Source: a virus
Strand: one strand, 5' to 3'
DNA: 64,000 bases
Virus record (IMG/VR): IMGVR_UViG_3300044815_000165
Coordinates: 1 to 64,000 of that record
Positions 24,590-39,613 of the stretch are shown here, piece after piece. A model generated the notes under the pieces. That model saw only the letters and a program-made list of their open reading frames with translations. It did not search any database and was not told the origin of the DNA. The stretch's first letter is position 1, and each line of letters opens with the position of its first letter. The position numbers and the translations under genes were made by a program.

Positions 24590-27500
24590 ATGGCCGGTAC
24601 CCTCAACAACGCGAAGCGCCCGCGCTACCAATCGAACGAGCGGTTCGACACCGTCGACGCCGACGGGGCGAGCCGCGCGCCGCGCGAGAACAACACCGCG
24701 GCGAATCGATCGCTGCTCAGCACGCCGCGCGCGACCGCCGCTGCTCCGGTGGGTCTCATCGTCAGCGGATTCTCGCTGACGCTCAACCCGGTCGGGCCAA
24801 CCGATAACAAGGTCCGCATCAACACGGAGGCCGGCGTCGCGCTCGACGCGGACGGCGGGCTCATCATCAAGCCTGCCGGCACCACCTTCGACGTGACCAT
24901 CCCCGTCGGCACGTACCAGGTCTACGTCTACTTTCAGGAGGTGTCCGGCGACAACGCGAAGCGTCGCTTCCTCCCGCCCAACACGCCGTTCACCGAGTTC
25001 ACGCGCGCGATCGACACGACCTTCCAGGGCTCGTTCAACGTCTACATCAGGGCGGGCAACGCGACGACGATCGTCGCCGAGGACAACGTCAACGGACGCA
25101 CGACGCCGCTCGTGTGCATCGGCGTCGTGACGAACACCGCCGGCGGATGCACGATGGCGGGACGCCCCGACAACGCCGCCGTCGCCACCATCCCGAACGG
25201 CACCGACATCACGAACCGCCTCAGCGCGGCGATCGCGCCGAGCACGCCGCCGACGACGCCGTACTTCAACGGTTCGATCCGCACGCTGCACGAGATGGTG
25301 CAGAACCTCGCGTACCAGATCGGCGAGGCCGCGTGGAAGGGCAGCACCAACCTGATCGCGTACACCGGATCCTCGTCCGGCGTCGGCGCCGGGACGTTGA
25401 CCGACGCGTCCAAGACGTTCGTCGTGAACGAGCTGACCGGCGGCGTCTTGAAGGACTCCACGGGCGCGCTGTTCCCCATCAGCAGCAACACCGCGACCAT
25501 CATCAGCGTCACGGGGAACCCGACGGCTGGCACGTACGTGGTCTACGCCGCCGTGGTGCTCAACAACTACGGCGCGTACAACGTGCCCGCCGGCGGCGTC
25601 GACGCGGCGTTTCGCGGTCTGCCCGGGTACGTGACGATCGGCAACGGCACGACCATCTTCGGCGACTTCGACACCACGAGCTACGCGAACGCGAACCTCC
25701 TGCTCACCGCTGCGATCGCGGCGCTGCCCGCCGCGGGCGGAACGATCATCCTCAAGCGCGGCGTCCAGCTCGCAGGATTCAACGCCGCGTTGGTCGCCGT
25801 CGGGCACGCGCGCGTCGAGATCGTCGGCGACTACTACGAGCACGAGGACTACCCGCAGCTCACCTTCGTCGCCAGCGAGGCGCTCCACGTCACCTCGGGT
25901 CAGCTCTGCCTGCGTCGGATCCACGTCGAGTTCGTCGGCAACGCCATCACCATCGACAGCGGCGCCAAGCTCGAGATCCGCGAGTGCAAGTTCGAGTGCA
26001 CGGGCGCCACGTTCGTCGGGGCTGCGATCGAGGGCGTCGACGTCAGCTACGTCGACATCGACGGGATGCTCCTGACCACCAACCTCGGGTCGCATTCCGC
26101 CAACGGGATGGCGCTCCGCATCACCGGCGTCGCGCGCAACATCCGCACGAACCGCGTGACGCACGAGTATCTGGGTGACGAGGCAGGTGTCATCGACATC
26201 GCGGACGGGCGCTCCGACATCGTCTTGCTCGAGACGACCGCTCTCGAGTTGGGAACGCCGTTCTCGTCTCTCGTGCGCCCGGCTGCCGTCAAGGTCAGCA
26301 CGACCGACAACACGACTGCTACCGAGATCCGCAACCGCCACATCTCTGGGATCTACGTGACCGGCACGGCGATGGACGGCCTCAACTACGGCGACATGGG
26401 GCATCTCGACGTCGAGCGCATCATCACGACATCGGCGCGTCGCGGTGTGCTGACCACGACGGCTGCGCTCGGTCCCGTCGTCTTCAGGAACTGCGAGTTC
26501 GGCGCGCTCGTGGTCATTCACGGAGACATCGACGACCTCACGTTCCAGTCGTGCACGTTCAAGAAGGGTCACACGATCGGCATCGACGGAGACGACATCG
26601 GTTCGCTGCGCTTCCTCGATTGCACGTACGACGGCGTCGCGCCGAACACGAGCGACGTCAAGGCGCACACGATCCGCATGCTGCGCGTGAACCGTTGCCA
26701 GATCCGCGACGTCTCGCTGGCCACGTCGAACGACTTCGCCGTGATCCGCGTGATGGGTGACACCAACGCCAACTTCGACGTCCTCGACTTCTCCGACAAC
26801 GACATCCGCAACATCCAGTCGACCATCGCCTTCACGGGCGACCTGCTCACGCGTCCTCGCATCTTCGAGGTCGACGCGTACATCACCCACGACGTCATCT
26901 GCGAGCGCAACAAGGGTGCGCGGTGGATGGCAAACACGTCGGGCAACTCGCGCTACGGCGTGACGCTCCTCAACATCGACAGCGTCGACCGCTTCACCGA
27001 CTCAGTCGGCTTCGTCGAGCGCATCGTCGTGAAGGACAACGTCATCGGCGGACTCTTCGGATCCTCCATCGACTGCTGTCAGCTCCTCGAGCTGAATCGT
27101 CAGAACCCGGACGTCATCGACGTCTCCGACAACCACATCGCTCCGCGGTGGAACGACAACGCGAACAACCCGCGGTTCTTCAACCTGGTCCACATCTCCA
27201 GCCCGGCCACCGTCGTCTCGCAGATCAGCATCAATAACAACAAGGTCATGTTGCTCAACGCGTCGATCTCGCCGTTCACGAAGAACTTCGTCTCGATCGG
27301 CATCGCCGGCAGCCTCTACAGCATGACGTTCGCCGGCAACGAGGTCTCGCAGGTGGGCACCACGCAGCCTTTCGACTTTGCTACCGCGTGGGGTTTCGTG
27401 TGCTCCGCGCTTGGCGTCAACGGCATCGTGAACCTCACCGTCAAGGACAACACGGCAAGCTGGCAGAGCACCTCGGCGACCGCGTGGTTCGAGACCAAGT

Positions 27501-27592
27501 TCACAGGTGCTGTCACGCGCTCTAATCCATCTGGAGGTGTTCCTGGTGCTGGCGTCGCGTGGGGACAGAACATCCAGATCTTCGGTGGGTGA
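24590..27592 (+). CDS. Tail spike/fibre with right-handed beta-helix (depolymerase-like)
   Basis: N-terminal baseplate anchor RYQSNERFDTVD..IVSGF; AAIAALPAAGGTIILKRG beta-helix cap then I/V-x-x-N ladders. Confidence 0.8.
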   Translation: MAGTLNNAKRPRYQSNERFDTVDADGASRAPRENNTAANRSLLSTPRATAAAPVGLIVSGFSLTLNPVGPTDNKVRINTEAGVALDADGGLIIKPAGTTFDVTIPVGTYQVYVYFQEVSGDNAKRRFLPPNTPFTEFTRAIDTTFQGSFNVYIRAGNATTIVAEDNVNGRTTPLVCIGVVTNTAGGCTMAGRPDNAAVATIPNGTDITNRLSAAIAPSTPPTTPYFNGSIRTLHEMVQNLAYQIGEAAWKGSTNLIAYTGSSSGVGAGTLTDASKTFVVNELTGGVLKDSTGALFPISSNTATIISVTGNPTAGTYVVYAAVVLNNYGAYNVPAGGVDAAFRGLPGYVTIGNGTTIFGDFDTTSYANANLLLTAAIAALPAAGGTIILKRGVQLAGFNAALVAVGHARVEIVGDYYEHEDYPQLTFVASEALHVTSGQLCLRRIHVEFVGNAITIDSGAKLEIRECKFECTGATFVGAAIEGVDVSYVDIDGMLLTTNLGSHSANGMALRITGVARNIRTNRVTHEYLGDEAGVIDIADGRSDIVLLETTALELGTPFSSLVRPAAVKVSTTDNTTATEIRNRHISGIYVTGTAMDGLNYGDMGHLDVERIITTSARRGVLTTTAALGPVVFRNCEFGALVVIHGDIDDLTFQSCTFKKGHTIGIDGDDIGSLRFLDCTYDGVAPNTSDVKAHTIRMLRVNRCQIRDVSLATSNDFAVIRVMGDTNANFDVLDFSDNDIRNIQSTIAFTGDLLTRPRIFEVDAYITHDVICERNKGARWMANTSGNSRYGVTLLNIDSVDRFTDSVGFVERIVVKDNVIGGLFGSSIDCCQLLELNRQNPDVIDVSDNHIAPRWNDNANNPRFFNLVHISSPATVVSQISINNNKVMLLNASISPFTKNFVSIGIAGSLYSMTFAGNEVSQVGTTQPFDFATAWGFVCSALGVNGIVNLTVKDNTASWQSTSATAWFETKFTGAVTRSNPSGGVPGAGVAWGQNIQIFGG

Positions 27593-27607
27593 TGTAATAT
27601 CCCTCTC

Positions 27608-27889
27608 ATGCTGCAAGGAGAACCGAACACCATGGAGGGGCCGGCAACCACATCGTGGGTGCGGCTCTATGTCACAAACCGACGCGGGGACAAATCGTTC
27701 GCTCGTCAGGTCGTCTTCACCTGTACAGACGCTGCCAACGACCTGTGGGTGAGCTTCGACGGTGGAACGACCAAGATGATCGTTCGGCACCTGGGTGAGA
27801 GCCTGGTGCTGCCGGGGCCGGTGAAAAGCTTCTCGGTGCGCGCCAGCGCCGCCACGGCTGCGTGGTCGGCAGCCCTCACGGTGGCCTGA
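27608..27889 (+). CDS. Hypothetical small beta protein
   Basis: DLWVSFDGGTT motif; TAATAT-7nt-ATG leaderless-type start. Confidence 0.55.
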   Translation: MLQGEPNTMEGPATTSWVRLYVTNRRGDKSFARQVVFTCTDAANDLWVSFDGGTTKMIVRHLGESLVLPGPVKSFSVRASAATAAWSAALTVA

Positions 27890-27959
27890 TCGAGGCTGGT
27901 GGAAAAGTCCACCCCACGGGAAGCCTTGCACTTATCTTGCACCCGAGGATGATCAAGTT

Positions 27960-28199
27960 ATGGAAGAAGAGATCAAGAAGCTCCGCGACCAGCTCGCAGC
28001 GTCCGAGAGACGTGAGGTGGAGCTGATGCGCGAGGCGCAGGGTCTCCGCGCTGCCATCGGTGTGTGCCGCTCGAACTGCACAGACTTCGGGACGCGCCGT
28101 AACGCGCTGACGGCCATCCGTTCACGCTCAGATGTGGCGCGCGATCCACTCGATCAGAGCGATGACGCCAGCACCGCCTGCACCGCCACCAGCGACTAA
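27960..28199 (+). CDS. Hypothetical coiled-coil protein
   Basis: MEEEIKKLRDQLAASERRE; 3' end overlaps the convergent minus-strand gene. Confidence 0.4.
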   Translation: MEEEIKKLRDQLAASERREVELMREAQGLRAAIGVCRSNCTDFGTRRNALTAIRSRSDVARDPLDQSDDASTACTATSD

Positions 28200-28883
28200 C
28201 GCCGTCGCGCGCGTCTGCTTCTGACGCTCGGACGCCTCGAACGGCTTCAGGCGCTCCTCGAGTTCCTTCACGGCCTTGTCACGCGCCGCGTTCGACGCAG
28301 CCAGCGAGTTCGTAAGCTCCGAGACCTTGCTCGTCAGCTCGTCGATCTCTTCCTCGTGACGGCGGTCGCGATCGTCGCGGTGCTCGCCGTCCTTGCGGAA
28401 CGCCACCGCCGTCGTCGCTGTCTCGCGATCGATCGTGGCGACCATCTGCGCGAGGTGCGCGAGGTGCTTGTCGAGGTCGGCGAACCGCCGGTCGTGGTTC
28501 GTGATGTCCTTCGAGTTCGACTGGCTCGACTCGAACGCGGCGTGTGCCGTGCCGGTGATCGACTTCGCGTTCGGGAGGAGGAACGTCTCCACGATCGCCG
28601 CCGTGCGCGCGCTCTCGCGCGAGAGCGCGTTGACGATGTCTTCGACATGGTCGAGACGGTCGGGCTCGTGGCGCAGCGCCCACACGCGCTCGCGGATGTC
28701 CTTGATGACGGTGACGACCGGCTGCGGCAGGTCGAGCGGCAGCTCGAGGGCCGGGATCGGCGTCTCGTCTCCGTCGACGTGCTGCGGGATGACATCGCGA
28801 TCACGCTCGCGATCGCGCTTCGCGGCGGCGCCTTCGATGTCGCGCTCCGTCTGGGTCTGGTGACGTTTCTTAGGGCCGCTCAC
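28128..28883 (-). CDS. Coiled-coil protein with C-terminal membrane anchor (holin/XhlA-like architecture)
   Basis: Heptad-rich body, C-terminal ALVAGGGAGGAGVIALIEWIARHI; TAGAGT-6nt-GTG start. Confidence 0.7.
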   Translation of the reverse strand: MSGPKKRHQTQTERDIEGAAAKRDRERDRDVIPQHVDGDETPIPALELPLDLPQPVVTVIKDIRERVWALRHEPDRLDHVEDIVNALSRESARTAAIVETFLLPNAKSITGTAHAAFESSQSNSKDITNHDRRFADLDKHLAHLAQMVATIDRETATTAVAFRKDGEHRDDRDRRHEEEIDELTSKVSELTNSLAASNAARDKAVKELEERLKPFEASERQKQTRATALVAGGGAGGAGVIALIEWIARHI

Positions 28884-29019
28884 CCGGAGACTCTACAGCT
28901 AGTCCCTGACGTCAGGACAGATCGTAGATCCGACGGTGCTCGACGAGGTAGAGCGCGGGCGCACGGAAGCCATGGGGTCGGGGGCCGAGGTGATGTACGA
29001 TGCAGCTGGAGATCAACCC

Positions 29020-29553
29020 ATGGCAGCAACCGTCCTTATTCGCGAGTGGAACGGCACCACGGGTGTCCCCACGCAGACCGACAAGACATCGGGAACCATC
29101 CGCTACAAGCAGGCGAACGACTCGACGGTCGACGCGATCAACCCGCTCGTCAAGCCGGCGGCGGGCTCGCAGCGCAGCTTCGAGAAGTGGATGCAGCTCA
29201 GGATCGGGGCGACGCCGCCGACGGGGTCGATCACGAACCTGCAGTGGTACACCGACGGGTCGAACAACTACGGCACCGGCATCACCGCCTTCATCCGCAC
29301 GACCAACATCGCGAGCGGCGCGTTCGTCACGCCGACGACGCCGGCGAACGACGCGGCGGGCACGAGCCAGTTCTCGTTCGCCACCGGGTCGCGCAAGAAC
29401 ATGGACGCGGTGACGGCCGGCGCGCCGTACTCCGCGGCCAACACGGACATCGGCGACTTCGGCATCCTGTGGATGACGATCGACAGCACCGTGTCGGCGC
29501 CGCAGAACCCGACGTCGTCGGAGACGCTGACCTGGTCCTACGACGAGACCTAG
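29020..29553 (+). CDS. Beta-rich virion protein, possible filament subunit
   Basis: TACGAT -10 box and GGAG RBS; RSFEKWMQLR..ITNLQWY..SETLTWSYDET; T/G/N-rich. Confidence 0.7.
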   Translation: MAATVLIREWNGTTGVPTQTDKTSGTIRYKQANDSTVDAINPLVKPAAGSQRSFEKWMQLRIGATPPTGSITNLQWYTDGSNNYGTGITAFIRTTNIASGAFVTPTTPANDAAGTSQFSFATGSRKNMDAVTAGAPYSAANTDIGDFGILWMTIDSTVSAPQNPTSSETLTWSYDET

Positions 29554-29562
29554 GAGATCACG

Positions 29563-30015
29563 ATGACCAAACAACGAGAAAAGATGACCATCGCCATCGA
29601 GGATGTCGCCACCATCGACGCGCCTTCGATCGGAAACGCACGTCCCCGCACGCTGCACTTCGACGAGCTGAAGATCGGCATGCGCGTCGCGTTCGTCGAC
29701 GACACGCTCAACAAGTTCCCGCGCTCGCACGTGCCGGTACCGCACGAGTCGAACGAGGCGATCGCAGGTCGCGTGCTGCTCGTCGTCGGGCTCGACGCGG
29801 TCACGCCGGGCAAGACGGTCGGCGTCTACTGCAAGGAACCCATCCCAGGCGGTCACAGCTGCGACGGGCGCGTGCCGGACGGTCATGGCTTGTACCTGCT
29901 GCCGGACCATCTCTACACGATCGCCGCTCTCACCGAGCACCAGCGGATGGCCGAGCACGCCGTCGTCGAGCATCGCGCCATCGCCTCGATGATCGAAGAG
30001 TTCGACGCGGGATGA
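29563..30015 (+). CDS. Hypothetical protein
   Basis: AGGAG RBS; GGHSCDGRVPDGHG motif. Confidence 0.65.
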   Translation: MTKQREKMTIAIEDVATIDAPSIGNARPRTLHFDELKIGMRVAFVDDTLNKFPRSHVPVPHESNEAIAGRVLLVVGLDAVTPGKTVGVYCKEPIPGGHSCDGRVPDGHGLYLLPDHLYTIAALTEHQRMAEHAVVEHRAIASMIEEFDAG

Positions 30016-30497
30016 CCGAGCTGACCCCATCGCAGCGGCAGAGCATGATCGCCGCCGGCGGGTGCGTGCACACGCCGAACCCGTTCGTCGGGTGTGACAC
30101 GTGCGAGCGTCCGCCGATCACGGTGCCGACCGAGGGTGTCATCGCGTACAGCTTCGTCGCGCAGACCATCGACGGCACCGTGATCACGCGATCGGACTCG
30201 CCTTCTGTCGAGGACCTCCCGCTCGAGACGGTTCGCCAGCTCGTCATCCTCACCGACTCGCCGCGCATCCCGCGCGTGATCGTCTGCTGCGATCCCGACA
30301 AGGGCGAGCGCGTGTTTCGCTTTCGCCGCAACATCCAGAAGATGTCGGCGATCGCGGATGACGGTCCGATGAAGGTGAAGTCGCGGCTGCAGGTCGAGGT
30401 GATCGAGATCCGCGACCTCGGCACCGGCAAGGCTACGCGCCTCTACCTGCACCCGACGCTCGGTCCGATCTTCTCGTCGCAAGACCACTACTGGTAG
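30012..30497 (+). CDS. Hypothetical protein
   Basis: ATGA overlap with previous stop; CVH..CDTC N-terminus. Confidence 0.65.
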   Translation: MTELTPSQRQSMIAAGGCVHTPNPFVGCDTCERPPITVPTEGVIAYSFVAQTIDGTVITRSDSPSVEDLPLETVRQLVILTDSPRIPRVIVCCDPDKGERVFRFRRNIQKMSAIADDGPMKVKSRLQVEVIEIRDLGTGKATRLYLHPTLGPIFSSQDHYW

Positions 30498-30503
30498 GAG
30501 ACC

Positions 30504-31703
30504 ATGCAGCTCGAACACGTCCGCTCACCACATGTGCAGGGCGTCGCGCCGCGGTCGGTGTACGGCGCTGGCGAAGACGCGCGAGCCATCGCCATCGCGC
30601 GCGAGGCTGCGAAGGGCAACATCCGGCCGCTGCCAGTGATCGCGGCGCGTCGCGTGATCGGCGTGGTCGGCGGACGCGAGGCATTCTCGGACGAGACCCA
30701 GTTCACGCCGCTCCGCCACGGTGCGCGCATGAGCGAGTTGCGCAGAACGATCGCTGACATGATCGACGTCCAGCGCGACGACTCCATCTGGCGCGCGCGG
30801 CAGCATCAGGAGCTGATGCCGGTCACCGACGCGAACCAGATCAGCGACTCGATGTCGAACGGCAAGAGCGGGGCGACCTTCTTCTCGAAGACGCCGTCCG
30901 CCGCGATGATCGCGAACAACTGGTACGATTACTGGCCGCTCGCGGGATCGCCGAACGCCGGCGGCATCGCCGGCACGGCGCGCACGGCACAGCGCTGGGA
31001 CGACACGAGCACTGGGGCACTCAATCACCGTGGCAACGTGTCGACCGACACGAAGCACACGGCGAGCCTCATGATGATCAACCAGGCGAATACGCCGTTG
31101 ACGATGCCGTACGACCGCGTCGGGTCGTGGGACGCGTGCTCCTTCACGACGTCGAACCAGACGTTCACGAACACGCTCTCGCCGCAACGCTACAACGCCG
31201 GTGCACCTGGTTTGCTGCCTGTGATGGTGACGAACACCGTCCTCAGCGCAACTGCCACGAACCTTATGCGCTTCGCGTACACCGACCAGGGCGGCACGAC
31301 CGCGCAGCTCATGCCGACGGGCACGACCGTCTCCGCGATCGTGTCGGCGGCGGCACCGACGACCACGCTCGGGGCTCGCGTGATCGCGCCGAGCACGAGC
31401 GCGAACACGTTCCCGTGGATCTTCCACCTGCCGCTCGCGTCCGGCGACAGCGGCATGCGCGTGCCCGAGGACTACACGTGGTCCGCAGCCAACACGGGCA
31501 CGTTCACGCTGATCGGCATGTACCCGTTCGGATACATCCTCAACCCGGTCGCGGCGATCCCGGCGGAGAAGGACTTCATCTACCAGATGCCAGCCCTCGA
31601 GCGCATGTACGACGGCGCGTGCGTCTCGTTCATGGCCTTCGTGCCCGCAGCCACGGCGATCGCGATCGCGCAGGGGCGCCTCTCCTTCCTCTGGCATTCA
31701 TGA
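30504..31703 (+). CDS. Virion protein, paralogue 1 of 4
   Basis: W..AGSP, YDR, YTDQGG, PLASGDSGMR, MYDGAC motifs shared by the four paralogues. Confidence 0.75.
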   Translation: MQLEHVRSPHVQGVAPRSVYGAGEDARAIAIAREAAKGNIRPLPVIAARRVIGVVGGREAFSDETQFTPLRHGARMSELRRTIADMIDVQRDDSIWRARQHQELMPVTDANQISDSMSNGKSGATFFSKTPSAAMIANNWYDYWPLAGSPNAGGIAGTARTAQRWDDTSTGALNHRGNVSTDTKHTASLMMINQANTPLTMPYDRVGSWDACSFTTSNQTFTNTLSPQRYNAGAPGLLPVMVTNTVLSATATNLMRFAYTDQGGTTAQLMPTGTTVSAIVSAAAPTTTLGARVIAPSTSANTFPWIFHLPLASGDSGMRVPEDYTWSAANTGTFTLIGMYPFGYILNPVAAIPAEKDFIYQMPALERMYDGACVSFMAFVPAATAIAIAQGRLSFLWHS

Positions 31704-32806
31704 ACCTCGAAACGGCGCCAGCGATCCGCACGCGACGCAAGGCTCGTCAGAGCGAGCTGGACGAGGCGCGCGCGATCGAACGCGCGGCGTGGTTGTGGCG
31801 CGGTGTGCCGTTCCCGATCCCCGTGGTGTCGCACGGCAAGTACCTCGGCGTGGTGTGCGGCGACCGCGTCACGGAGGAGCCGACGTTCGTCGACGCGCTC
31901 CACGCGATGCCGATCTCGAGCACGTACGACGGTCACGTCGAACGCAACTGGGGCCGCAAGCAGCACCGCTTCACCTGGTCGGTACGGTTCGGCAACGGCG
32001 TGCTCGGCAACTGGTACTCGCTGTGGCCGTGCCTCGGCGATCCGGGGCCTGGCTTGTACACAGGCACGGCACGCGCCGCGGTCTCGTACACGCGCGCGAG
32101 CCCTGGCGCGATGCGCCTCGGCAAGGCCGTCACGCCGTCGCTGCGCTACGCGCGTCGCTGCACGGAGTTTCCGAGCGTCGACGCGGCGCACGGCTACGTC
32201 GTCGTCGATCGCGCCATCGCTTACAACGCATGCACGATGAGCGCGTCGTTGCAGTCGACGAACAACACCGTCACCGCGACGCGCAACATCAGCGCGGGCG
32301 AGCGCGGCTATCAGATCTTCGGCGTCGCCGACACCGTGCACAACGCGACCGCCGCATCCATGAGCGCGATGATCTACACCAACCAGGCAGGCACTGGATC
32401 GCGCAACGTCGACACGACCGTGACGCTCACCAAGATCGTGTCGCTCGCTGCACCGACCAACACGAACGGTGCGCGCAACCTCTTCCAGACACCCGGAGCC
32501 GCGACGCGTGGTCCTGCGACGCCGTGGATCTCGCTGCAGGCTGGTGATCGCGGCGTGCGGCAGATCGACAGCTACACGTTCTCCGCGGCGCCGACCGGAA
32601 CGTGCTGCTTCGAGCTGGACTTCCCGATCTACTTGTCACCCGACGGCTACCGCGGCGGCGCGGCGACCGACTACGAGATGATCTCCGGGATCGAGGCGCT
32701 GTACGGCGCGCGCCTCTACGACGATGCTTGCCTCACCGTGATCGGGTTCGGCACGACGGCGACCGACAAGATCATTCACGGAGCCATCGCAGTAGGCTGG
32801 ACCTGA
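31700..32806 (+). CDS. Virion protein, paralogue 2 of 4
   Basis: ATGA overlap; WYSLWP..GDP, VDR, YTNQAG, LQAGDRGVRQIDSYT, LYDDACL. Confidence 0.75.
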   Translation: MNLETAPAIRTRRKARQSELDEARAIERAAWLWRGVPFPIPVVSHGKYLGVVCGDRVTEEPTFVDALHAMPISSTYDGHVERNWGRKQHRFTWSVRFGNGVLGNWYSLWPCLGDPGPGLYTGTARAAVSYTRASPGAMRLGKAVTPSLRYARRCTEFPSVDAAHGYVVVDRAIAYNACTMSASLQSTNNTVTATRNISAGERGYQIFGVADTVHNATAASMSAMIYTNQAGTGSRNVDTTVTLTKIVSLAAPTNTNGARNLFQTPGAATRGPATPWISLQAGDRGVRQIDSYTFSAAPTGTCCFELDFPIYLSPDGYRGGAATDYEMISGIEALYGARLYDDACLTVIGFGTTATDKIIHGAIAVGWT

Positions 32807-33921
32807 TGCTGGCGATCCACACCGAGAGCAAGACGCGGTTCCACCCGTCGCTCGTTTCGCACGTGCTGCGTCGCGCGGCGCGAAACATCGTCGGGACGGA
32901 GAGCACCGTCGGCGTCTACGCGGACGAGCGCTGCGTGGGGCTCGTGCGCGGCGAGAGCGGCAGTCGTCGCGTGCGGGTCAAGCCGATCACCCACAAGCAG
33001 TGGTGCGGCTTCAACGACCAGGCGGCGATCGAGGCGGCGGTGCGCGCCGGCAAGATCATCGAGCCCGTCTTCAACAAGGTGGCCAACGCCTTCAACTCGG
33101 TGAACGTGTGGGGCGACCTCTGGCCCGTCGGCTTCTACCCGCAGCAGGGTACGTACGGCGGCACAGCTGCGACGGCGCGACAGCTGGACCAGACCACGCC
33201 GGGCGCTTTCGAGATCCGCCACAAGACGCCGGGGGCCGGCGAGACGCGCCATTTCATGGGCGCGCACCAGGTCTCTCTTCAGAGCGGCGCTTCGACGGCA
33301 ATCGCGCAGGAGCAATGGCTCTACGACCGCACGCTCCAATACGACGGCTGCACGATCACCACGTCGACGACGACGATGACCAACACGATCACCGCCGCGC
33401 GCCACATCAGCGCGGGCGAGGACGGGTTGCAGATCTGCGTCACCGGCGTCGCCGCGCTCGGCGCGACGGCGAGCAACCTGACGAGCGTCGTGATCGTCGA
33501 CAACGCCGGCAACACGGCGGTGTCGCTCACGCCGGGCTACACGATGCCCTGGTGGACGAACGGTCTCGCCGGCGCATCCAACGCGCTCGCGCCCGTCGTC
33601 GTGCCACACGACAACGGCAACACGACCACGATCGCGCCGTGGCTGCCGATGCCTCCCGGCGTGCGCGGCTGCCGGTCGGTCACGAGCTTCGCGTCGTCGG
33701 CCAACAACACCGGAACCGTCGCGGTCACGCTCATCAAGCCGATCGCCTTCATGTGGACGTCGGCCGGATCGATCGTCCACAACCACGACAGCTCGCGCCT
33801 CGGCTTCCAGATGGGACGCGTCTACGACAGCGCGTGCCTGAACCTCCTGTTGCGGAGCTTCTTCAACAACGGCGGTGCCACGTTCACCAACTTCGGACAG
33901 ATCCGACTCGTCCACGGGTGA
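32806..33921 (+). CDS. Virion protein, paralogue 3 of 4
   Basis: TGATG overlap; WGDLWP, LYDRTLQYDGC, PMPPGVRGCRSV, VYDSACL. Confidence 0.75.
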   Translation: MLAIHTESKTRFHPSLVSHVLRRAARNIVGTESTVGVYADERCVGLVRGESGSRRVRVKPITHKQWCGFNDQAAIEAAVRAGKIIEPVFNKVANAFNSVNVWGDLWPVGFYPQQGTYGGTAATARQLDQTTPGAFEIRHKTPGAGETRHFMGAHQVSLQSGASTAIAQEQWLYDRTLQYDGCTITTSTTTMTNTITAARHISAGEDGLQICVTGVAALGATASNLTSVVIVDNAGNTAVSLTPGYTMPWWTNGLAGASNALAPVVVPHDNGNTTTIAPWLPMPPGVRGCRSVTSFASSANNTGTVAVTLIKPIAFMWTSAGSIVHNHDSSRLGFQMGRVYDSACLNLLLRSFFNNGGATFTNFGQIRLVHG

Positions 33922-33934
33922 TACGGTGAGCGTC

Positions 33935-34261
33935 ATGAGCGTCGAGCAGCACGCGGCTTTCCTCTTCGAGAAGCATCCGAGACTTCTCCAGATCCAGATC
34001 GAGGAGACCGGCGAGACGCGCTTCTGGTTCGGGATCGGGTTGTCGTCGCCGCTACTCGTCGTCGACGACTCCTCGTACATCAACGCGCCGGCCTCGATGT
34101 GGTTCACCGACGCGCTCGACACGCACGACGAGCGCATCGAAGCCTCTGGTCTCGTCGACATGCGCGACGCCGTCCTCGTGTTTCGTGACGAAGCCACTGC
34201 CGCAGGTGTGGTCCTGCCGCAAGTCTGGCACCGGACGATGGTCGAAGAACCTGCCGAATGA
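33935..34261 (+). CDS. Hypothetical protein inserted in paralogue array
   Basis: TGa TACGGT-7nt-ATG; ORF fills the gap between paralogues 3 and 4. Confidence 0.55.
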   Translation: MSVEQHAAFLFEKHPRLLQIQIEETGETRFWFGIGLSSPLLVVDDSSYINAPASMWFTDALDTHDERIEASGLVDMRDAVLVFRDEATAAGVVLPQVWHRTMVEEPAE

Positions 34262-34292
34262 CCCGGGCTTCGTGATCCTGTAAAACGTAGGG

Positions 34293-35435
34293 ATGCACCT
34301 GCAACAGGCGCCGTCGGTCCGAACTCGCTCCAAGACGCGCGAGTCCGACCACGACCGCGAGCGCGCCATCTGGCAGGCGCTGCAGGGTGCACGCTGCTCC
34401 GGCAACGACCGCCTCCTGCCCGTCTACTTCCGTGGACGCCGCATCGCTTGGGTCGCGAGCGATCTCGAGCGCTACGTCGTCCTCCGTCACGAGTCGTGGA
34501 TGGACAAGCACGTCGACCGCGTCGGTCGCCTCTTCGGGTGGACGCGGATCGATCACATCATTCGCGACTCGACACAGTTCGGCCAGGCGTGCGTGCGGAT
34601 GTGGTCGAAGAACATCTACAACTCCGGGCTGCTGACACCTCGGTGGCATCACCTCCACGGCGTCGCCGGCAACCCGGGCGCGAACACGTTCGCGGGCACA
34701 GCACTGCAGTCGAAACGTCACAGCGACGCACTCGACATGGGCATCGACCACGGCGGCAACGTCTCGCCAATGGTGAAGTTCCTGCTTGGCGGTGGTGCAC
34801 GCATCGGTGCTACCGGCACGTTCGCCGAGACCGCGCTGTTCCTGCTCTACGATCTCGTCGTGAGCTACGACCAGTGCGGGTTCGTCGCGGGCTCGCAGTC
34901 GATGTCGACGACCGCCGGCGTGAACGACGCGCTCCGCTACGTCGGCACGAACGATCCTGGCCTCGTCATCATGCCGATGACGACCGCCGCGAACGGCAAC
35001 ATCGCGTACACGTCGCTCGCGTACACGAGCGACACTGGAACCGCGCCCGAGGGCGCCGCCGCGGTGACGACCTCGCTACAGACCGTCTTCACGTCGGCTG
35101 CACCGACCGCGGGGGACCAGTGGGTCAGCGCGATCGAGTACAGCGGATCGCACTCGATGCTCAGCATCCCGCTCCGTGCTGGCGACACCGGCGTGAAGCA
35201 GATCGACAGCTTCACGATGGGTACCACCGTCGCCGGTCAGATCGCATTCCTCCTAGGCGGTCCGCTCGGCTGGTTCCCGGTACACGGTGGCGACTATTAC
35301 CATCCGATGGACTTCGTGAAGATCACTACCGAGGAGCCCGTGATCCTCGATGGTGCGTGCCTCACGTGGGTCATGCACAGCGTGTCCCTCAACCAGGTGT
35401 TCAGCGGTCACCTCAACTTCGCGTGGGGCTCATGA
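34293..35435 (+). CDS. Virion protein, paralogue 4 of 4
   Basis: WHHLHGVAGNP, LYDLVVSYDQC, YTSDTG, PLRAGDTGVKQIDSFT, ILDGACL. Confidence 0.75.
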   Translation: MHLQQAPSVRTRSKTRESDHDRERAIWQALQGARCSGNDRLLPVYFRGRRIAWVASDLERYVVLRHESWMDKHVDRVGRLFGWTRIDHIIRDSTQFGQACVRMWSKNIYNSGLLTPRWHHLHGVAGNPGANTFAGTALQSKRHSDALDMGIDHGGNVSPMVKFLLGGGARIGATGTFAETALFLLYDLVVSYDQCGFVAGSQSMSTTAGVNDALRYVGTNDPGLVIMPMTTAANGNIAYTSLAYTSDTGTAPEGAAAVTTSLQTVFTSAAPTAGDQWVSAIEYSGSHSMLSIPLRAGDTGVKQIDSFTMGTTVAGQIAFLLGGPLGWFPVHGGDYYHPMDFVKITTEEPVILDGACLTWVMHSVSLNQVFSGHLNFAWGS

Positions 35436-37276
35436 ACCTCTGGAACCGGCCAGGCTTCGCCTACGGTCATCTCTACGGCAACCAGGTTGCCGTCGCGTGG
35501 CCTGGTCAGGAGTGGTGCGACCGCGGTCCGCTGATCTCGATGACGGTCGGCATGCCGCCGGACACGCTCACGGTGACCGGCGGCATGACGTGGATCATCC
35601 CGCAGAGCGTCGGCTCGTACACGCTCACCGCGACGGCGAACGCGGTCATCGGCGCGTCGCGCACGATCACCACCATCGCGAACGCGGTCATCAAGGCGCA
35701 GCAGGCGATCTCCGCGATCGCGAACGCGGTCATCGGGACGAGCTTCACCGACACCACCGTCGCGAACGCAGTGATCAAGGCTGCGCAGAGCATCACCGCG
35801 AGCGCGAACGCGGTCCTGCAAGGACATCAGTCGGTGACGGCGAACGCGAACGCGGTCGTGCAGGCGGCTCAGTCGGCGACGGCGAACGCGAACGCCGTGA
35901 TCAAGGCAGCGCAGACGCTCTCCGCATCTGCCGACGCCGTCATCGCTCAGAGCCACACCGTCACGTCGTCGGCCAACGCGGTGATCCAGGCAGCGCAGAC
36001 GATCTCCGCCGCAGCGAACGCTGTCGTGCTCGCGCAGCAGCTCGTCACCGCGAGCGCGAACGCCGTGATCGCGCAAACCCACACCGACACCGCGAGCGCG
36101 AACTCCGTGATCGAGGCACAGCAAGCCGTGTCCGCGGTGGCGAACGCCGTCATCGAGGCGCAGCAATCGTTGACAGCGTCAGCCGACGCGATCATCGCGA
36201 ACCGCCTCGCCGACACCGTCTCCGCCGATGCAGTGATCCAGGCAAAGCAGATCGTCACGGTCGCGGCCGACGCGGTGATCCAGGCCGCGCAAGGTGTCGT
36301 CGCGCAGGCGAACGCCGTCATCATCAACGTCGGCGGCACGCAAGTGTTCGTGGGTGCCGACGCCGTGATCCGGGCCGCGCAGATCGTCATCGCGCAGGCG
36401 AGCGCTGTCGTGCAGGCATCACAGATGATCACGGCGAGCGCGAACGCCGTCATCGGTGCCGAGCTGCTCCGAACCGTCGCCGCGAACGCCGTGATCAAGA
36501 CGAGCTTCTCCGACACCGCGAGCGCGAATGCAGAGATCGCGTTGACGTCCGTGGTCGTCGCGAGCGCGAGCGCCGTGTTGCAGCTGCGTTCGACGATCGC
36601 CGCGAGCGCGAGCGCGGTCATCCAGGCGCATCTCGACGGGACGGCGAACGCGAACGCGGTCGTGCAGGGGCATCAATCCGTTGCAGACGTGGCGAACGCC
36701 GTCATCGCTCTCCGTCACCAGATCCAGTCCTCCGCCGATGCAGTAGTCCGCGCAGCACAGAGCTTCAGCGCAAATGCCGACGCGATCGTGCGCTCCACCA
36801 TCAACCTCGTCGCGTTCGCGAACGCAGTCGTGCAGGCACATCAGGTCGTACCCGCAACTGCCGACGCCGTGATCCAGGCTGCGCAGTCGCACACAGCTGC
36901 GGCCGATGCCGAGATCGCGAACGCCATCTACCTCAGCCTCAACGCCGACGCGATCGTCAAGGCGCTGCAGACGGTGGGTGTCGACGGCAACGCGGTGATC
37001 CAGGGCAACATCCTCCAACAGCTCAGCGCGAACGCCTTCGTCGCACAACCAGAGATGCAGACGGCGAACGCGAACGCCGTCATCATCCTGCCGTACCCGG
37101 TGATCATCGGCCTCCTCAGCAGCGTCGGAGACCTGCTCGCGTCGCTCGCGCTTGGTCTCGAGATGGACGCCAGCATCACGTCGCGCAACGACCTCGCGAG
37201 CGACATCATCGAGGATGACGGTGCGCTCGGTGGTACGATCACGGTCCGCGATGACCTGGATGGAGACCTGACATGA
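35432..37276 (+). CDS. Repeat protein (about 35 x 14 aa), putative filament core/ruler
   Basis: ATGA overlap; consensus T-V-T-A-S-A-N/D-A-V-I-Q-A-A-Q. Confidence 0.8.
   Translation: MNLWNRPGFAYGHLYGNQVAVAWPGQEWCDRGPLISMTVGMPPDTLTVTGGMTWIIPQSVGSYTLTATANAVIGASRTITTIANAVIKAQQAISAIANAVIGTSFTDTTVANAVIKAAQSITASANAVLQGHQSVTANANAVVQAAQSATANANAVIKAAQTLSASADAVIAQSHTVTSSANAVIQAAQTISAAANAVVLAQQLVTASANAVIAQTHTDTASANSVIEAQQAVSAVANAVIEAQQSLTASADAIIANRLADTVSADAVIQAKQIVTVAADAVIQAAQGVVAQANAVIINVGGTQVFVGADAVIRAAQIVIAQASAVVQASQMITASANAVIGAELLRTVAANAVIKTSFSDTASANAEIALTSVVVASASAVLQLRSTIAASASAVIQAHLDGTANANAVVQGHQSVADVANAVIALRHQIQSSADAVVRAAQSFSANADAIVRSTINLVAFANAVVQAHQVVPATADAVIQAAQSHTAAADAEIANAIYLSLNADAIVKALQTVGVDGNAVIQGNILQQLSANAFVAQPEMQTANANAVIILPYPVIIGLLSSVGDLLASLALGLEMDASITSRNDLASDIIEDDGALGGTITVRDDLDGDLT
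35621..37096 (+). repeat. Degenerate 42-bp coding tandem repeat, about 35 copies
   Basis: Recurring GCGAACGC(C/G)GT(C/G)ATC core with 42-nt period; one lengthened junction (INVGGTQ) at mid-array. Confidence 0.9.
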
Positions 37277-37713
37277 GCTGCACGAACGGGTGCGACAACA
37301 ACGCGTGCGTCACGTGTGGAGGCAGCGGTCCGCCCGTCTGCGTCATGCAGGGCGAGACGAAGACGTTCCTCCTGCTGGTGAAGGTGCTCGCCACGAAGGT
37401 GCCGCAGAACCTCGATCTCGTGAAGATCTACTTCACGGTCAAGGAGCGCGTCGACGACATCGCGCCGTTCATCCTGAAGCGCACCGTGGACGCCGGTGGC
37501 GCAGTCGGCGAGATCGTCATCGCGACGCCACAGGCGACGGCTGCGAACACGGGGCGCGCGACGATCACCCTCACGTCGGACGACACGAAGCTATTCAGGC
37601 CGGGCGTCGCGTACTGGTTCGACGTGTGGGTCGTCCTGCCAACCGGGGAAGAGCGTCCGGTGATCCGCCGGCGCCAGATCGCCGTCGACACCCGCATCAC
37701 CATCATCCCGTAG
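37273..37713 (+). CDS. BppU N-terminal-like anchoring protein with Cys-rich N-terminus
   Basis: QGETKTF..PQNL..IYFTVK..GRATITLTSDDT..YWFDVWV pattern. Confidence 0.65.
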   Translation: MSCTNGCDNNACVTCGGSGPPVCVMQGETKTFLLLVKVLATKVPQNLDLVKIYFTVKERVDDIAPFILKRTVDAGGAVGEIVIATPQATAANTGRATITLTSDDTKLFRPGVAYWFDVWVVLPTGEERPVIRRRQIAVDTRITIIP

Positions 37714-37721
37714 GAGACCTC

Positions 37722-38102
37722 GTGAACGACACCCTCAAGATCGCAGCTCGGCTCAGCATCCACCCGTCTCCGTCGGCCGTCTCATCGTCCGGCCGGCCGT
37801 CGACCGACGTCGAGATCGTCGAGGGCTTCGCCGTCGTGAAGAAGCTCGACACGATGTACACGCTCGACGCCGCGCCCGCCGTCACCATCGGGATGGGCGA
37901 TCTCGACGGCGCGAACTTCATCTTCATCTACTCGGACGAGTCGGTGACGGTCGAGGTGACCAGCGCGCTCGGCACGGCGCAGACCCTGCCGGGAAGGATC
38001 GTGTTGCTGATCGACCCGGCCGAGTCCGTGACGCTCATCCGCCTGACGCAGAAGAACGGCGTGACCGCGAACGTGCGGATCGTCCTGGGGCAGCTCGCGT
38101 AG
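37722..38102 (+). CDS. Small beta-rich hypothetical structural protein
   Basis: AGGAG RBS, GTG start; last gene of the structural cassette. Confidence 0.65.
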   Translation: MNDTLKIAARLSIHPSPSAVSSSGRPSTDVEIVEGFAVVKKLDTMYTLDAAPAVTIGMGDLDGANFIFIYSDESVTVEVTSALGTAQTLPGRIVLLIDPAESVTLIRLTQKNGVTANVRIVLGQLA

Positions 38103-38109
38103 CGTTTGC

Positions 38110-38140
38110 GTTGACATTGTCAACGATAAACGTGTAGATT
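38110..38140 (+). promoter_or_regulatory. Sigma70-type promoter with palindromic operator over -35 (copy 1)
   Basis: GTTGACATTGTCAAC; TTGACA-18-TAGATT-6nt-GTG. Confidence 0.8.
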
Positions 38141-38146
38141 CCACAG

Positions 38147-39613
38147 GTGACGGAACGTCGTGCCACCGTGACCATGCTCAGCAACGTGCGGTGCGTGGTC
38201 GACTTCAAGTACCCGGGGTTGGAAGCGAAGGCAGCGGAGAAGGAGCGCACGCGGATCGTCAACCTGCTCGACGACGCGCTCGCGATCGAGAACAAGGGTG
38301 CGCACTTCAACCCGACCGTCCAGAAGGGTCTCTGGGACGGCCGGCGTCACATGTTCTACAAGGACGGCTGCACCTTCGCGAAGGGTCTCATGCCTCGCCT
38401 GAAGAGCCTGTTGCGCGACGCGGGCTACAAGATCATGAAGACGAAGGACGAGCGCAAGAACGTCCCGACGGAGGTCGACCTCTCCATCGTGCAGCCCGAC
38501 ATGCTCGCGACGATCACGCTGCGCCCGGACCAGCTCCGCGTGATCAAGACGGCGCTGCGCAAGGGCTGCGGTCTTCTCCACGTCGCGACGGGCGGTGGCA
38601 AGAGCGCCGACGCGACCGCGATCATCAAGACCCTGATCGACAAGCGAAGCCTGTTCCTGGTCCACACGAAGCAGCTCCTCGGTCAGGCACGCAAGGAGAT
38701 CGCGAAGTTCCTCGGCACGATCGAGGAGTACATCGGCATCATCGGCGACGGCAACTTCAACCCGAAGCACATCACGGTCGCCACCGTGCAGAGCTTGTCG
38801 CGCGTCACGCGTGCCGATCAGAAGAAGATCATCGCGAAGTACCTCAAGACGATCGAGGTGCTCATCCTCGACGAGTGCCACCACTCGTCGGCGAAGTCGT
38901 TCTACAAGCTCCTGCAGCGGATCGACGCGCCGTGGCGCTACGGCTTGTCCGGCACGCCGTTCGGGCTCGCTGACGGCAAGGGGCTGATGGTGGAGGCCGC
39001 GTTCGGGCCGGTGTTCGAGCGCGTCACGAACGACGAACTGATCCAGCTCGGCATCAACGCCAAGCCGACGATCCGGATGATCGAGTCGAGCGTGCCGAAG
39101 CTCGACTCCGGGCTCGACTGGCAGAGCGTCTACAAGGAGGGGATCGTCCTCAACACCGCGCGGAACATCCTCGTCGCCAACCACGCCGCCGCGTTCGCGA
39201 AGAAGAAGTGGCCGACGCTCGTGATCGTCCGCGAGCTGTGGCACGGCGACAACCTGGCCGAGCTGCTCCGTGATCGCAGCGTCGCGCACGCGTTCGTTCA
39301 CGGACAGATGTCGACCACCGAGGTCGAGCGTCAGAAGGTGAGGCTGACCGAGGGCAAGATCCACGTGCTCATCGCGTCGCCGATCTTCGGCGAGGGTGTC
39401 GACATCCCGTCGGTGCGCGCGCTCATCGTGGCAGACGGCGGGCAGTCGACCGCGGCGGTGCTGCAGAAGGTTGGACGTGGTCTCCGATCGAAGAAGGGTG
39501 ACAACCGTCTCGACGTCATCGACTTCGCAGACACCACGCACAAGTGGTTAGCCAAGCACAGCCAGGAACGGATCGCACTCTACGAAGGCGAAGGTTTTGA
39601 AGTCTTGATGTGA
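38147..39613 (+). CDS. Superfamily 2 DEAH helicase (UvsW-like)
   Basis: ATGGGKS, LDECHH, GLSGTP, FGEGVDIP, QKVGRGLR. Confidence 0.92.
   Translation: MTERRATVTMLSNVRCVVDFKYPGLEAKAAEKERTRIVNLLDDALAIENKGAHFNPTVQKGLWDGRRHMFYKDGCTFAKGLMPRLKSLLRDAGYKIMKTKDERKNVPTEVDLSIVQPDMLATITLRPDQLRVIKTALRKGCGLLHVATGGGKSADATAIIKTLIDKRSLFLVHTKQLLGQARKEIAKFLGTIEEYIGIIGDGNFNPKHITVATVQSLSRVTRADQKKIIAKYLKTIEVLILDECHHSSAKSFYKLLQRIDAPWRYGLSGTPFGLADGKGLMVEAAFGPVFERVTNDELIQLGINAKPTIRMIESSVPKLDSGLDWQSVYKEGIVLNTARNILVANHAAAFAKKKWPTLVIVRELWHGDNLAELLRDRSVAHAFVHGQMSTTEVERQKVRLTEGKIHVLIASPIFGEGVDIPSVRALIVADGGQSTAAVLQKVGRGLRSKKGDNRLDVIDFADTTHKWLAKHSQERIALYEGEGFEVLM

Follow-up and report, generated by a model that had tools for sequence, protein, structure and literature searches.

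What is encoded by a compact operon that lies downstream of the tail-fibre genes of an uncultured soil phage and contains a protein of 14-residue tandem repeats? This question is raised by the IMG/VR record IMGVR_UViG_3300044815_000165, of which positions 1 to 64,000 were analysed. This stretch, hereafter the window, makes up the initial 64 kb of a contig of 89 kb, from an uncultured virus, with a G+C content of ~65%. The operon occupies positions 29020-38102 and its genes are named A to K in order of position. An earlier note on the window had proposed that the 14-mers of protein I are read donor-strand-wise by protein A, a subunit of 177 amino acids (aa).

Our analysis gives a probability of about 0.5 to the reading that the operon codes for an adhesive fibre which is associated with the virion, belongs to an undescribed type and relies on A to read the 14-mers of I. 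Four independent kinds of evidence back the relationship of A with the repeat, i.e., the fold of A, its predicted complex with I, the linkage of the two genes and their fusions; this evidence is real but indirect. The donor-strand part of the proposal is favoured in the models by the pilins among the fold neighbours of A and by an interface score of 0.71 against 0.01 in the controls, and also by the near-obligate linkage and the fusions. One subunit on each repeat is a tentative extension of the proposal.

The beta-sandwich protein A and the repeat protein I

The two genes on which the analysis is centred are the following:

29020..29553, plus strand: gene A, 177-aa beta-sandwich protein, predicted reader or subunit for the 14-mer repeat
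35432..37276, plus strand: gene I, 614 aa, in which the 35 units (residues 65-560) are preceded by 64 aa and followed by 54 aa

The description of I as a 614-aa protein of ~35 repeats of 14 aa proved accurate, as exactly 35 tandem units were counted. In detail, 34 units have 14 residues and one has 16, and identity at a lag of 14 is 0.40. Their consensus is [V/I/L]-T-A-S-A-[N/D]-A-V-[I/V]-Q-A-x-Q-[S/T], with hydrophobic and polar residues alternating at positions 1-11. The N/D at position 6 is conserved and there is no conserved Gly or Pro across the 35 units. Tandem DNA repeats with periods of 42 and 84 fall inside the gene. Within the C-terminus (residues ~557-614, window 37100-37276), a hydrophobic stretch of 20 residues, V-I-I-G-L-L-S-S-V-G-D-L-L-A-S-L-A-L-G-L, precedes a tail that is strongly acidic; this region may serve in oligomerisation, in docking or as a membrane element. 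A 622-aa open reading frame (ORF) starting with ATG at 35350-37218, provided by the ORF finder, was rejected as an Arg-rich shadow of the repeat gene in another frame.

In sequence searches, I matched the LbR_Ice_bind beta-roll family PF21300 with an E-value (E) of 0.0012 and 19.3 bits, which is below the 30-bit cut-off of Pfam. Its best match in the PDB was 3ult at E 0.78, i.e., at chance level, with no sequence match to solved fibres, and no relative was found among GenBank phages.

The model of A (AlphaFold2, AF2; alignment of 47 sequences) has a predicted local distance difference test (pLDDT) score of 89.6. About half of its top 50 solved neighbours, as found with VIA, are subunits of donor-strand fibres (Z 4.4-5.9), and the neighbours include FimG, FimA, Csu, CS17/CS20, CfaB, PapA, EcpA, TasA, archaeal bundling pili and cannulae. 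The best pilin in Foldseek had a probability of 0.93 and E 0.06. This enrichment of pilins is suggestive of a shared fold. Segments 22-30 and 158-177 of A are confident in the monomer model, lack regular secondary structure and may be edges which await a strand. The start codon is fixed by the GGAGA located 7 nt upstream of the ATG and by the invariant MAATV N-terminus of the homologues. The N-terminus, MAATVLIREWNG, shows no obvious signal peptide or hydrophobic leader by eye. The effective number of codons (ENC) of A is 28.1, the strongest codon bias among the genes tested (29.0 for the sheath and 30.4 for the capsid), which is weak evidence of an abundant product.

The complex was predicted from the alignment of A and residues 121-176 of I (four repeats), for which 23 four-repeat segments were aligned in register. 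The interaction prediction scores from aligned errors (ipSAE) were 0.79, 0.71 and 0.67, with a median of 0.71, and the best of three controls reached 0.01. The pairing of the 177-aa protein with its repeats, which the earlier note had singled out for modelling, is recovered in prediction when four repeats are offered. In calibration, 58 of 80 solved complexes and 2 of 110 mismatched pairs attained this ipSAE mark, counts which are only rough because our own alignments were used.

The three runs agreed in at least 96% of contacts. The pLDDT of A was 91-95 and that of the partner 53-56, a low value because only one repeat is engaged. The predicted interface is formed by partner residues 36-54 and by residues 2, 5-7, 22-30, 38-47 and 158-177 of A. 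The tightest contacts involve partner residues 45-51 (A-S-A-D-A-V-I), which correspond to the conserved alternating core, and this contact core is kept in all 35 units of I. Among the closest pairs listed, the bound strand is antiparallel to A 161-170 and parallel to A 22-29. In the model, it is thus placed between the N- and C-terminal segments of A, which is the place of the donor strand in the pilin topology. When an unrelated protein was offered in place of A, the pLDDT of the partner fell to 29, and therefore the four-repeat fragment has no confident monomer fold.

Across 54 loci, the top co-variation pair between repeat positions and columns of A combines repeat position 8 and A164, a residue that touches partner residues 48 and 50 in the predicted complex. 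Ala at position 8 is found with I, L, M or V at A164 (Q in three loci and a gap in two), and V, L or I at position 8 with A, S, T, P or N, with one exception. This pattern is size-compensating and significant by label shuffling (p < 2e-4), and it is considered suggestive only.

Relatives of the two genes in other viral loci

The family of A gave 304 matches in a word-index search, and an exhaustive search yielded 918 representatives of clusters at 50% identity (464 at E up to 1e-10). No member was found in prophages when genome contigs were scanned. Eighty viral loci with an A gene were used for the study of linkage, and their neighbouring genes were clustered; individual loci are cited by L numbers and individual proteins by P numbers.

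In 55 of the 80 loci, the strand of A also encodes a 14-mer repeat protein, at a median distance of 2.2 kb; its gene lies immediately upstream of A or, in other loci, a few kb downstream of it. When the count is restricted to the 27 loci in which at least 4 kb upstream and at least 6 kb downstream are available, 26 have such a same-strand protein. In the 27th (L011), a divergent 14-periodic protein ends 10 nt before A. All well-flanked loci (27/27) have, consequently, a 14-periodic repeat protein beside A.

The repeat proteins of these loci are clearly of one kind, with the consensus A-T-A-S-L-[N/D/S/G]-A-A-[V/I]-[Q/R]-A-A-R-T and variants of it, and with 6 to 79 aligned units per protein. Two near-identical proteins (L014:12243-13421 and L020:12060-14426) carry 5 and 14 copies, respectively, of one identical 14-residue unit and differ in the presence of an N-terminal domain. 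The difference between them is evidence, at the sequence level, for rapid expansion and contraction of the repeat. The parts outside the repeats are diverse. For instance, there is a large unannotated N-terminal domain in L019, a domain of ~400 aa in L041 and ~900 residues with a weak beta-propeller match in L049. In L093, about five units precede two concanavalin A (ConA)-like lectin domains (Laminin_G_3, E 7e-47). The repeat proteins look like adhesins on a 14-mer stalk.

In many loci, the cassette follows a portal gene (family phrog_21 or phrog_145) and precedes a protease/major-head gene. In L101, it is flanked by a MuF-like gene on one side and by the scaffold and capsid genes on the other, and in L011 it is located between a probable capsid gene and a tape-measure gene, both named by eye. 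In the window, it follows the tail-fibre genes. The cassette is portable among phages.

The closer relatives of A (45-57% identity) share the order A, C homologue, repeat protein and J homologue. The expectation that the genes of the operon would co-occur in other phages holds, then, for A with the repeat protein and, in closer relatives, for C and J; it does not extend to B, G and K, which were not found, and it applies to the D family only sometimes.

Fused forms of A were not detected by the word-index search and emerged from the exhaustive one. P0217 and P0224 each combine on one chain, in this order, an N-terminal domain, some four 14-mers and the A domain, an arrangement analogous to that of a pilin which carries its donor extension at the N-terminus. 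P0227 and P0231 agree with these two in length and in the position of the A domain. In P0218 (558 aa), the A domain is located at residues 3-174 and is followed by ~380 residues without a Pfam family, which may represent an enzyme or a binding head carried by an A-type docking module.

Two additional features of these loci were noticed. A gene for a LAGLIDADG-type homing endonuclease (motif LAGFFDGEGSI; L086:6640-7155) is located directly after the closest A homologue found, which is 83% identical. The large terminase upstream of the A cassette in L028 (L028:562-3873) has 1103 aa, compared with ~590 aa in relatives, with an apparent intein-like insertion.

The other genes of the operon and their setting

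The remaining features of the region are as follows:

28884..29019, no strand: intergenic region of 136 bp, the divergent gap between a minus-strand coiled-coil gene and A
29563..30015, plus strand: gene B, 150 aa, no relatives found among related loci
30012..30497, plus strand: gene C, 161 aa, homologues directly 3' of A in closer relatives
30504..31703, plus strand: gene D, paralogue 1, 399 aa, N-terminal alpha/beta domain and jelly roll of ~280 residues in the AF2 model
31700..32806, plus strand: gene E, paralogue 2, 368 aa
32806..33921, plus strand: gene F, paralogue 3, 371 aa
33935..34261, plus strand: gene G, small acidic ORF of 108 aa, or 128 aa from the GTG at 33875, called by the frame plot of G+C at third codon positions (GC3)
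34293..35435, plus strand: gene H, paralogue 4, 380 aa
37273..37713, plus strand: gene J, 146 aa, Cys-rich N-terminus, start overlapping the stop of I (ATGA)
37722..38102, plus strand: gene K, 126 aa, last gene of the operon

Genes were called with the GC3 frame plot and start-codon candidates; the plot was used because G+C-rich DNA yields many shadow ORFs. A to K form an uninterrupted, tightly packed chain on the plus strand with overlaps of 1-4 nt at the junctions B/C, D/E, E/F, H/I and I/J, and the five overlapping junctions agree with the tightly packed operon noticed before. The earlier inventory of genes was right overall; it had omitted the small ORF G, and its promoter and its label of a "BppU-like" protein were not supported.

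The window also encodes a major capsid protein of the SPO1/Herelleviridae type (phrog_752, E 3e-90; ~38% identity with capsids of Bacillus phages), a tail sheath, a protein bearing an M23 peptidase, a tube initiator and a baseplate J protein, with four large proteins up to 27592. Based on this gene set, the phage is a myovirus. A gene for a UvsW-like helicase is found at 38147, downstream of the cassette. The site of the cassette presumably corresponds to the position of receptor-binding genes in SPO1-like phages. There was no match between the DNA of the window and GenBank phages, and there are no further copies of the cassette genes or of the 14-mer elsewhere in the 89-kb genome.

Upstream of A, a lone minus-strand gene for a 251-aa coiled-coil protein (28128-28883) interrupts the otherwise plus-strand structural block and has weak matches of coiled-coil type only. 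Its 3' end overlaps a plus-strand coiled-coil ORF of 79 aa (27960-28199), and the plus-strand ORF across 28128-28883 translates into Arg/Ser-rich nonsense. Since the operon diverges from this gene, separate transcription is plausible. A scan of 27500-38400 with a relaxed consensus gave no sigma-70-like site within 28884..29019. The only match was at 38111-38140 (TTGACA, 18 nt, TAGATT), just upstream of the UvsW-like helicase gene. The TACGAT at 28996, which had been taken as the promoter, falls short of this relaxed consensus. Late phage promoters often fail the sigma-70 consensus and, thus, this failure is neither for nor against separate promotion.

The paralogy of D, E, F and H, which had been proposed before, is borne out by identities of 24-30% (E 1e-6 to 4e-31) and spans nearly the full length of the proteins. 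The AF2 model of D has a pLDDT of 88 (47-sequence alignment). Its top match in Foldseek is VP2 of birnavirus at E 6e-5, but with a template modelling (TM) score of 0.15 and a root-mean-square deviation (rmsd) of 20 Å. VIA, which is independent of Foldseek, gave Z values of ~5 (at most 5.6) with many unrelated jelly rolls, i.e., viral, tumour necrosis factor (TNF)-like, carbohydrate-binding and from phage fibres. The modelled jelly roll fits a binding head, yet it identifies nothing specific.

D has 49 homologues. In GenBank phages, four weak matches were found, one of which is located between the portal and capsid genes of a podovirus. The D family shares some contigs with A, being near it in L013 and L066, and it is also found without A. 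Directly 3' of a D-family gene, L003:3549-5837 (762 aa) and L004:11069-12373 (434 aa) encode proteins with a repeat period of ~20 residues, of the type E-T-[VL]-S-x-x-E-A-L-S-A. These two cassettes are preceded by proteins of ~210 and ~130 aa, followed by one of 185 aa, and their architecture is parallel to that of the A-K cassette, with unrelated sequences. Their first gene was tried as a remote relative of A and was rejected (hhalign probability 0.1%).

Homologues of C were found by tblastn in L091-L098 and L100 with identities of 26-38%. A protein of ~80 aa follows A in 65 loci, and its membership in the family of C was not established (hhalign E 0.013, probability 3%). J gives the impression, from its sequence, of a beta-rich, Ig-like protein, and homologues of it are encoded after the repeat gene in L093, L094 and L101. 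In L101, the J gene begins at the last base of the stop codon of the repeat gene, the counterpart of which in the window is the 4-nt overlap. J had been labelled BppU-like; J and four relatives gave no Pfam match at E up to 1, and a profile search of the PDB returned chance-level matches only. J weakly matches phrog_1084, a family of unknown function, which is the only PHROG match among A-K. K also seems beta-rich. None of the proteins A-K has a Pfam family at E up to 0.1, the conserved neighbour proteins in the A loci gave nothing in Pfam and PHROGs, and the ESM Atlas search returned unnamed viral clusters only.

A possible templated fibre and its alternatives

If A reads the repeats of I, a filament could be built as follows. 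I would form an extended core of 35 tandem units with alternating hydrophobic and polar residues (approximately V-T-A-S-A-N-A-V-I-Q-A), and A would be a beta-sandwich shaped like a pilin, in which the groove between residues 22-30 and the C-terminal 158-177 is open. Each unit would enter the groove of an A molecule as a strand antiparallel to the C-terminal segment, like the donor strand of the chaperone-usher pili. With all units occupied, a beads-on-a-string filament would result, in which the repeat count sets both the length and the number of subunits. The ~490 repeat residues, at ~3.3 Å each, would span ~160 nm if fully extended, and would accommodate ~35 subunits of A with ~14 residues for each. 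The strand and linker of pilins together have a length close to ~14 residues per subunit. This complete version, with 35 donor strands on one polypeptide and each of them capturing one pilin-like subunit, is put forward as tentative.

C and J would be conserved accessory parts. Translation of J is coupled to that of I, and its product may act as a cap or an anchor at one end. The paralogues D, E, F and H most probably serve as binding heads, either interchangeable or combined. We infer the roles of C, J, K and the paralogues from position and fold only. Since the cassette of relatives is usually part of a head module, and since lectins or other heads are borne by the repeat proteins, an adhesin fibre of the virion is likely. 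A possible attachment to the head or neck is suggested by the head-module position in most relatives, whereas in the window the cassette is located after the tail fibres.

The nearest folds to the model of A are pilins of chaperone-usher pili (type 1, P, CFA/I and Csu). In donor-strand exchange, the strand occupies the groove next to the C-terminal strand of the pilin, and the predicted complex likewise places a ~10-residue alternating-hydrophobic strand antiparallel beside the C-terminal strand. On the contrary, in these pili the donor derives from the N-terminal extension of each subunit, while here tandem donors would be supplied by a separate polypeptide, and there is no sequence relation to the viral cassette genes. 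A search of Pfam with A-K found no PapD-like chaperone or usher family. Given the lack of a leader by eye and of these two families among A-K, A falls outside the chaperone-usher class, though it may work similarly. TasA of B. subtilis, the archaeal bundling pili and the cannulae are also among the neighbours of A (8aur, Z 4.9; 7ueg, Z 5.3; 9h8b, Z 4.5). TasA and the archaeal fibres insert strands between beta-sandwich subunits without an usher, but they are homopolymers which exchange their own strands, without a known separate repeat core, and the Z values are only middling.

The repeat itself resembles other structures. The triple beta-spiral shafts of the adenovirus fibre, reovirus sigma1 and PRD1 P5 have repeats of ~15 residues with alternating hydrophobic positions and carry a conserved Gly/Pro turn. 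This turn is absent in I, where only the N/D at position 6 is conserved, and beta-spirals need no partner subunit. The beta-roll of the ryegrass antifreeze/ice-recrystallisation-inhibition protein (PF21300, 3ult) likewise consists of 14-15-residue repeats in which T, S, N, A and V are abundant; the match of I to it is most likely compositional. As far as phage fibres are concerned, the position in head modules of the relatives recalls the head or decoration fibres of phi29 (gp8.5) and the capsid fibres of phiCbK and 7-7-1. No sequence similarity of A or I to gp8.5 or to any GenBank phage was found, and the proteins of the capsid fibres of 7-7-1 are still unidentified (PMC12796354). The literature searched for donor-strand or strand-complementation phage fibres contained nothing relevant. 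In principle, nebulin on actin is closer to a templated filament than any known pilus or phage fibre.

Several results weigh against the reading of the 14-mers by A in such a fibre. The Z values of 5-6 in the fold matches of A are middling and under the level of a secure shared fold. In contrast to a classical pilin, which is incomplete, A is modelled with confidence even when no donor strand is present (pLDDT 89.6). The interface is the prediction of one program on our own alignments, and one of the four offered repeats was bound, as expected from a single A chain. The co-variation of position 8 with A164 corresponds to about five switches on the tree, three of them on well-supported branches, with a sign test of p ~0.5, and contact columns are weakly enriched among the top co-variation pairs (15/40 compared with 26% expected). 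In addition, A had no match in cultured phages (GenBank), B, G and K had no relatives in the loci searched, and genes of the D family are near A in few loci.

The strongest competitor, which we consider rather unlikely, is that I assembles by itself into a shaft, either a trimeric beta-spiral or beta-helix or a monomeric beta-roll of 14 residues per turn with an Asn/Asp ladder, and that A is a dedicated chaperone which transiently shields the aggregation-prone 14-mers. Recognition of the repeat by such a helper would account equally well for the predicted binding, the tight linkage and the co-conservation of A and the motif, and the weak beta-roll matches of I (PF21300 at E 0.0012; 3ult at E 0.78) together with the conserved N/D at position 6 agree with a self-assembling shaft. 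The fusions point in the other direction, as a permanent union of the repeats with the A domain in a single chain would be unusual for a transient helper, and P0218, with its A domain and extension, resembles a cargo adaptor. Moreover, A has the strongest codon bias of the region and exceeds the fibre in conservation, and the four-repeat fragment reached a pLDDT of only 29 as a monomer without A.

Next in rank, and improbable in our estimation, is a role of A as an adaptor that binds one or few 14-mers and joins a stalk formed by the repeats to the virion or to other parts. The A domain of P0218 with its ~380-aa extension is what would be expected of a docking module, and the L093 protein has just about five units before its lectin domains. 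Nevertheless, the motif is absent from every other protein of the 89-kb genome and thus A has nothing else to join, the contact core is retained in all 35 units of I, and the codon bias of A suggests many copies. The case that A and I are mere neighbours, i.e., unrelated late or moron genes with a false-positive complex, is the least probable and has very little chance of being correct. It would be in line with the 2 of 110 mismatched pairs which hit the same mark in calibration, with the non-significant result of the phylogeny-aware co-variation test and with the lack of a known function for any cassette member. Coincidence is opposed by the linkage in 27/27 well-flanked loci across differing portal families and cassette positions, by the existence of Rosetta-stone fusions and by the wide margin between complex and controls (0.71 and 0.01).

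If A truly reads the 14-mer, the missing partner of a widespread and undescribed repeat of phage fibres has been identified, in a family of 918 clusters (50% identity) without a representative in cultured phages. The fibre would also be the first of a virus to assemble in a donor-strand manner, with a repeat core as the template. The repeat number would equal the length, a simple genetic rule for an adhesion organelle which would also account for the hypervariable counts (e.g., 5 and 14 identical units in contigs that are nearly identical). The A domain and the 14-mer would constitute a portable reader or docking code for lectins, enzymes and other heads in hundreds of uncultured phage lineages, and would offer a small modular protein-peptide docking pair for the engineering of phage host range in laboratory systems or for the construction of nanofibres. 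The chaperone explanation, too, would define a new family of a fibre with its chaperone, entirely overlooked by the present annotation pipelines.

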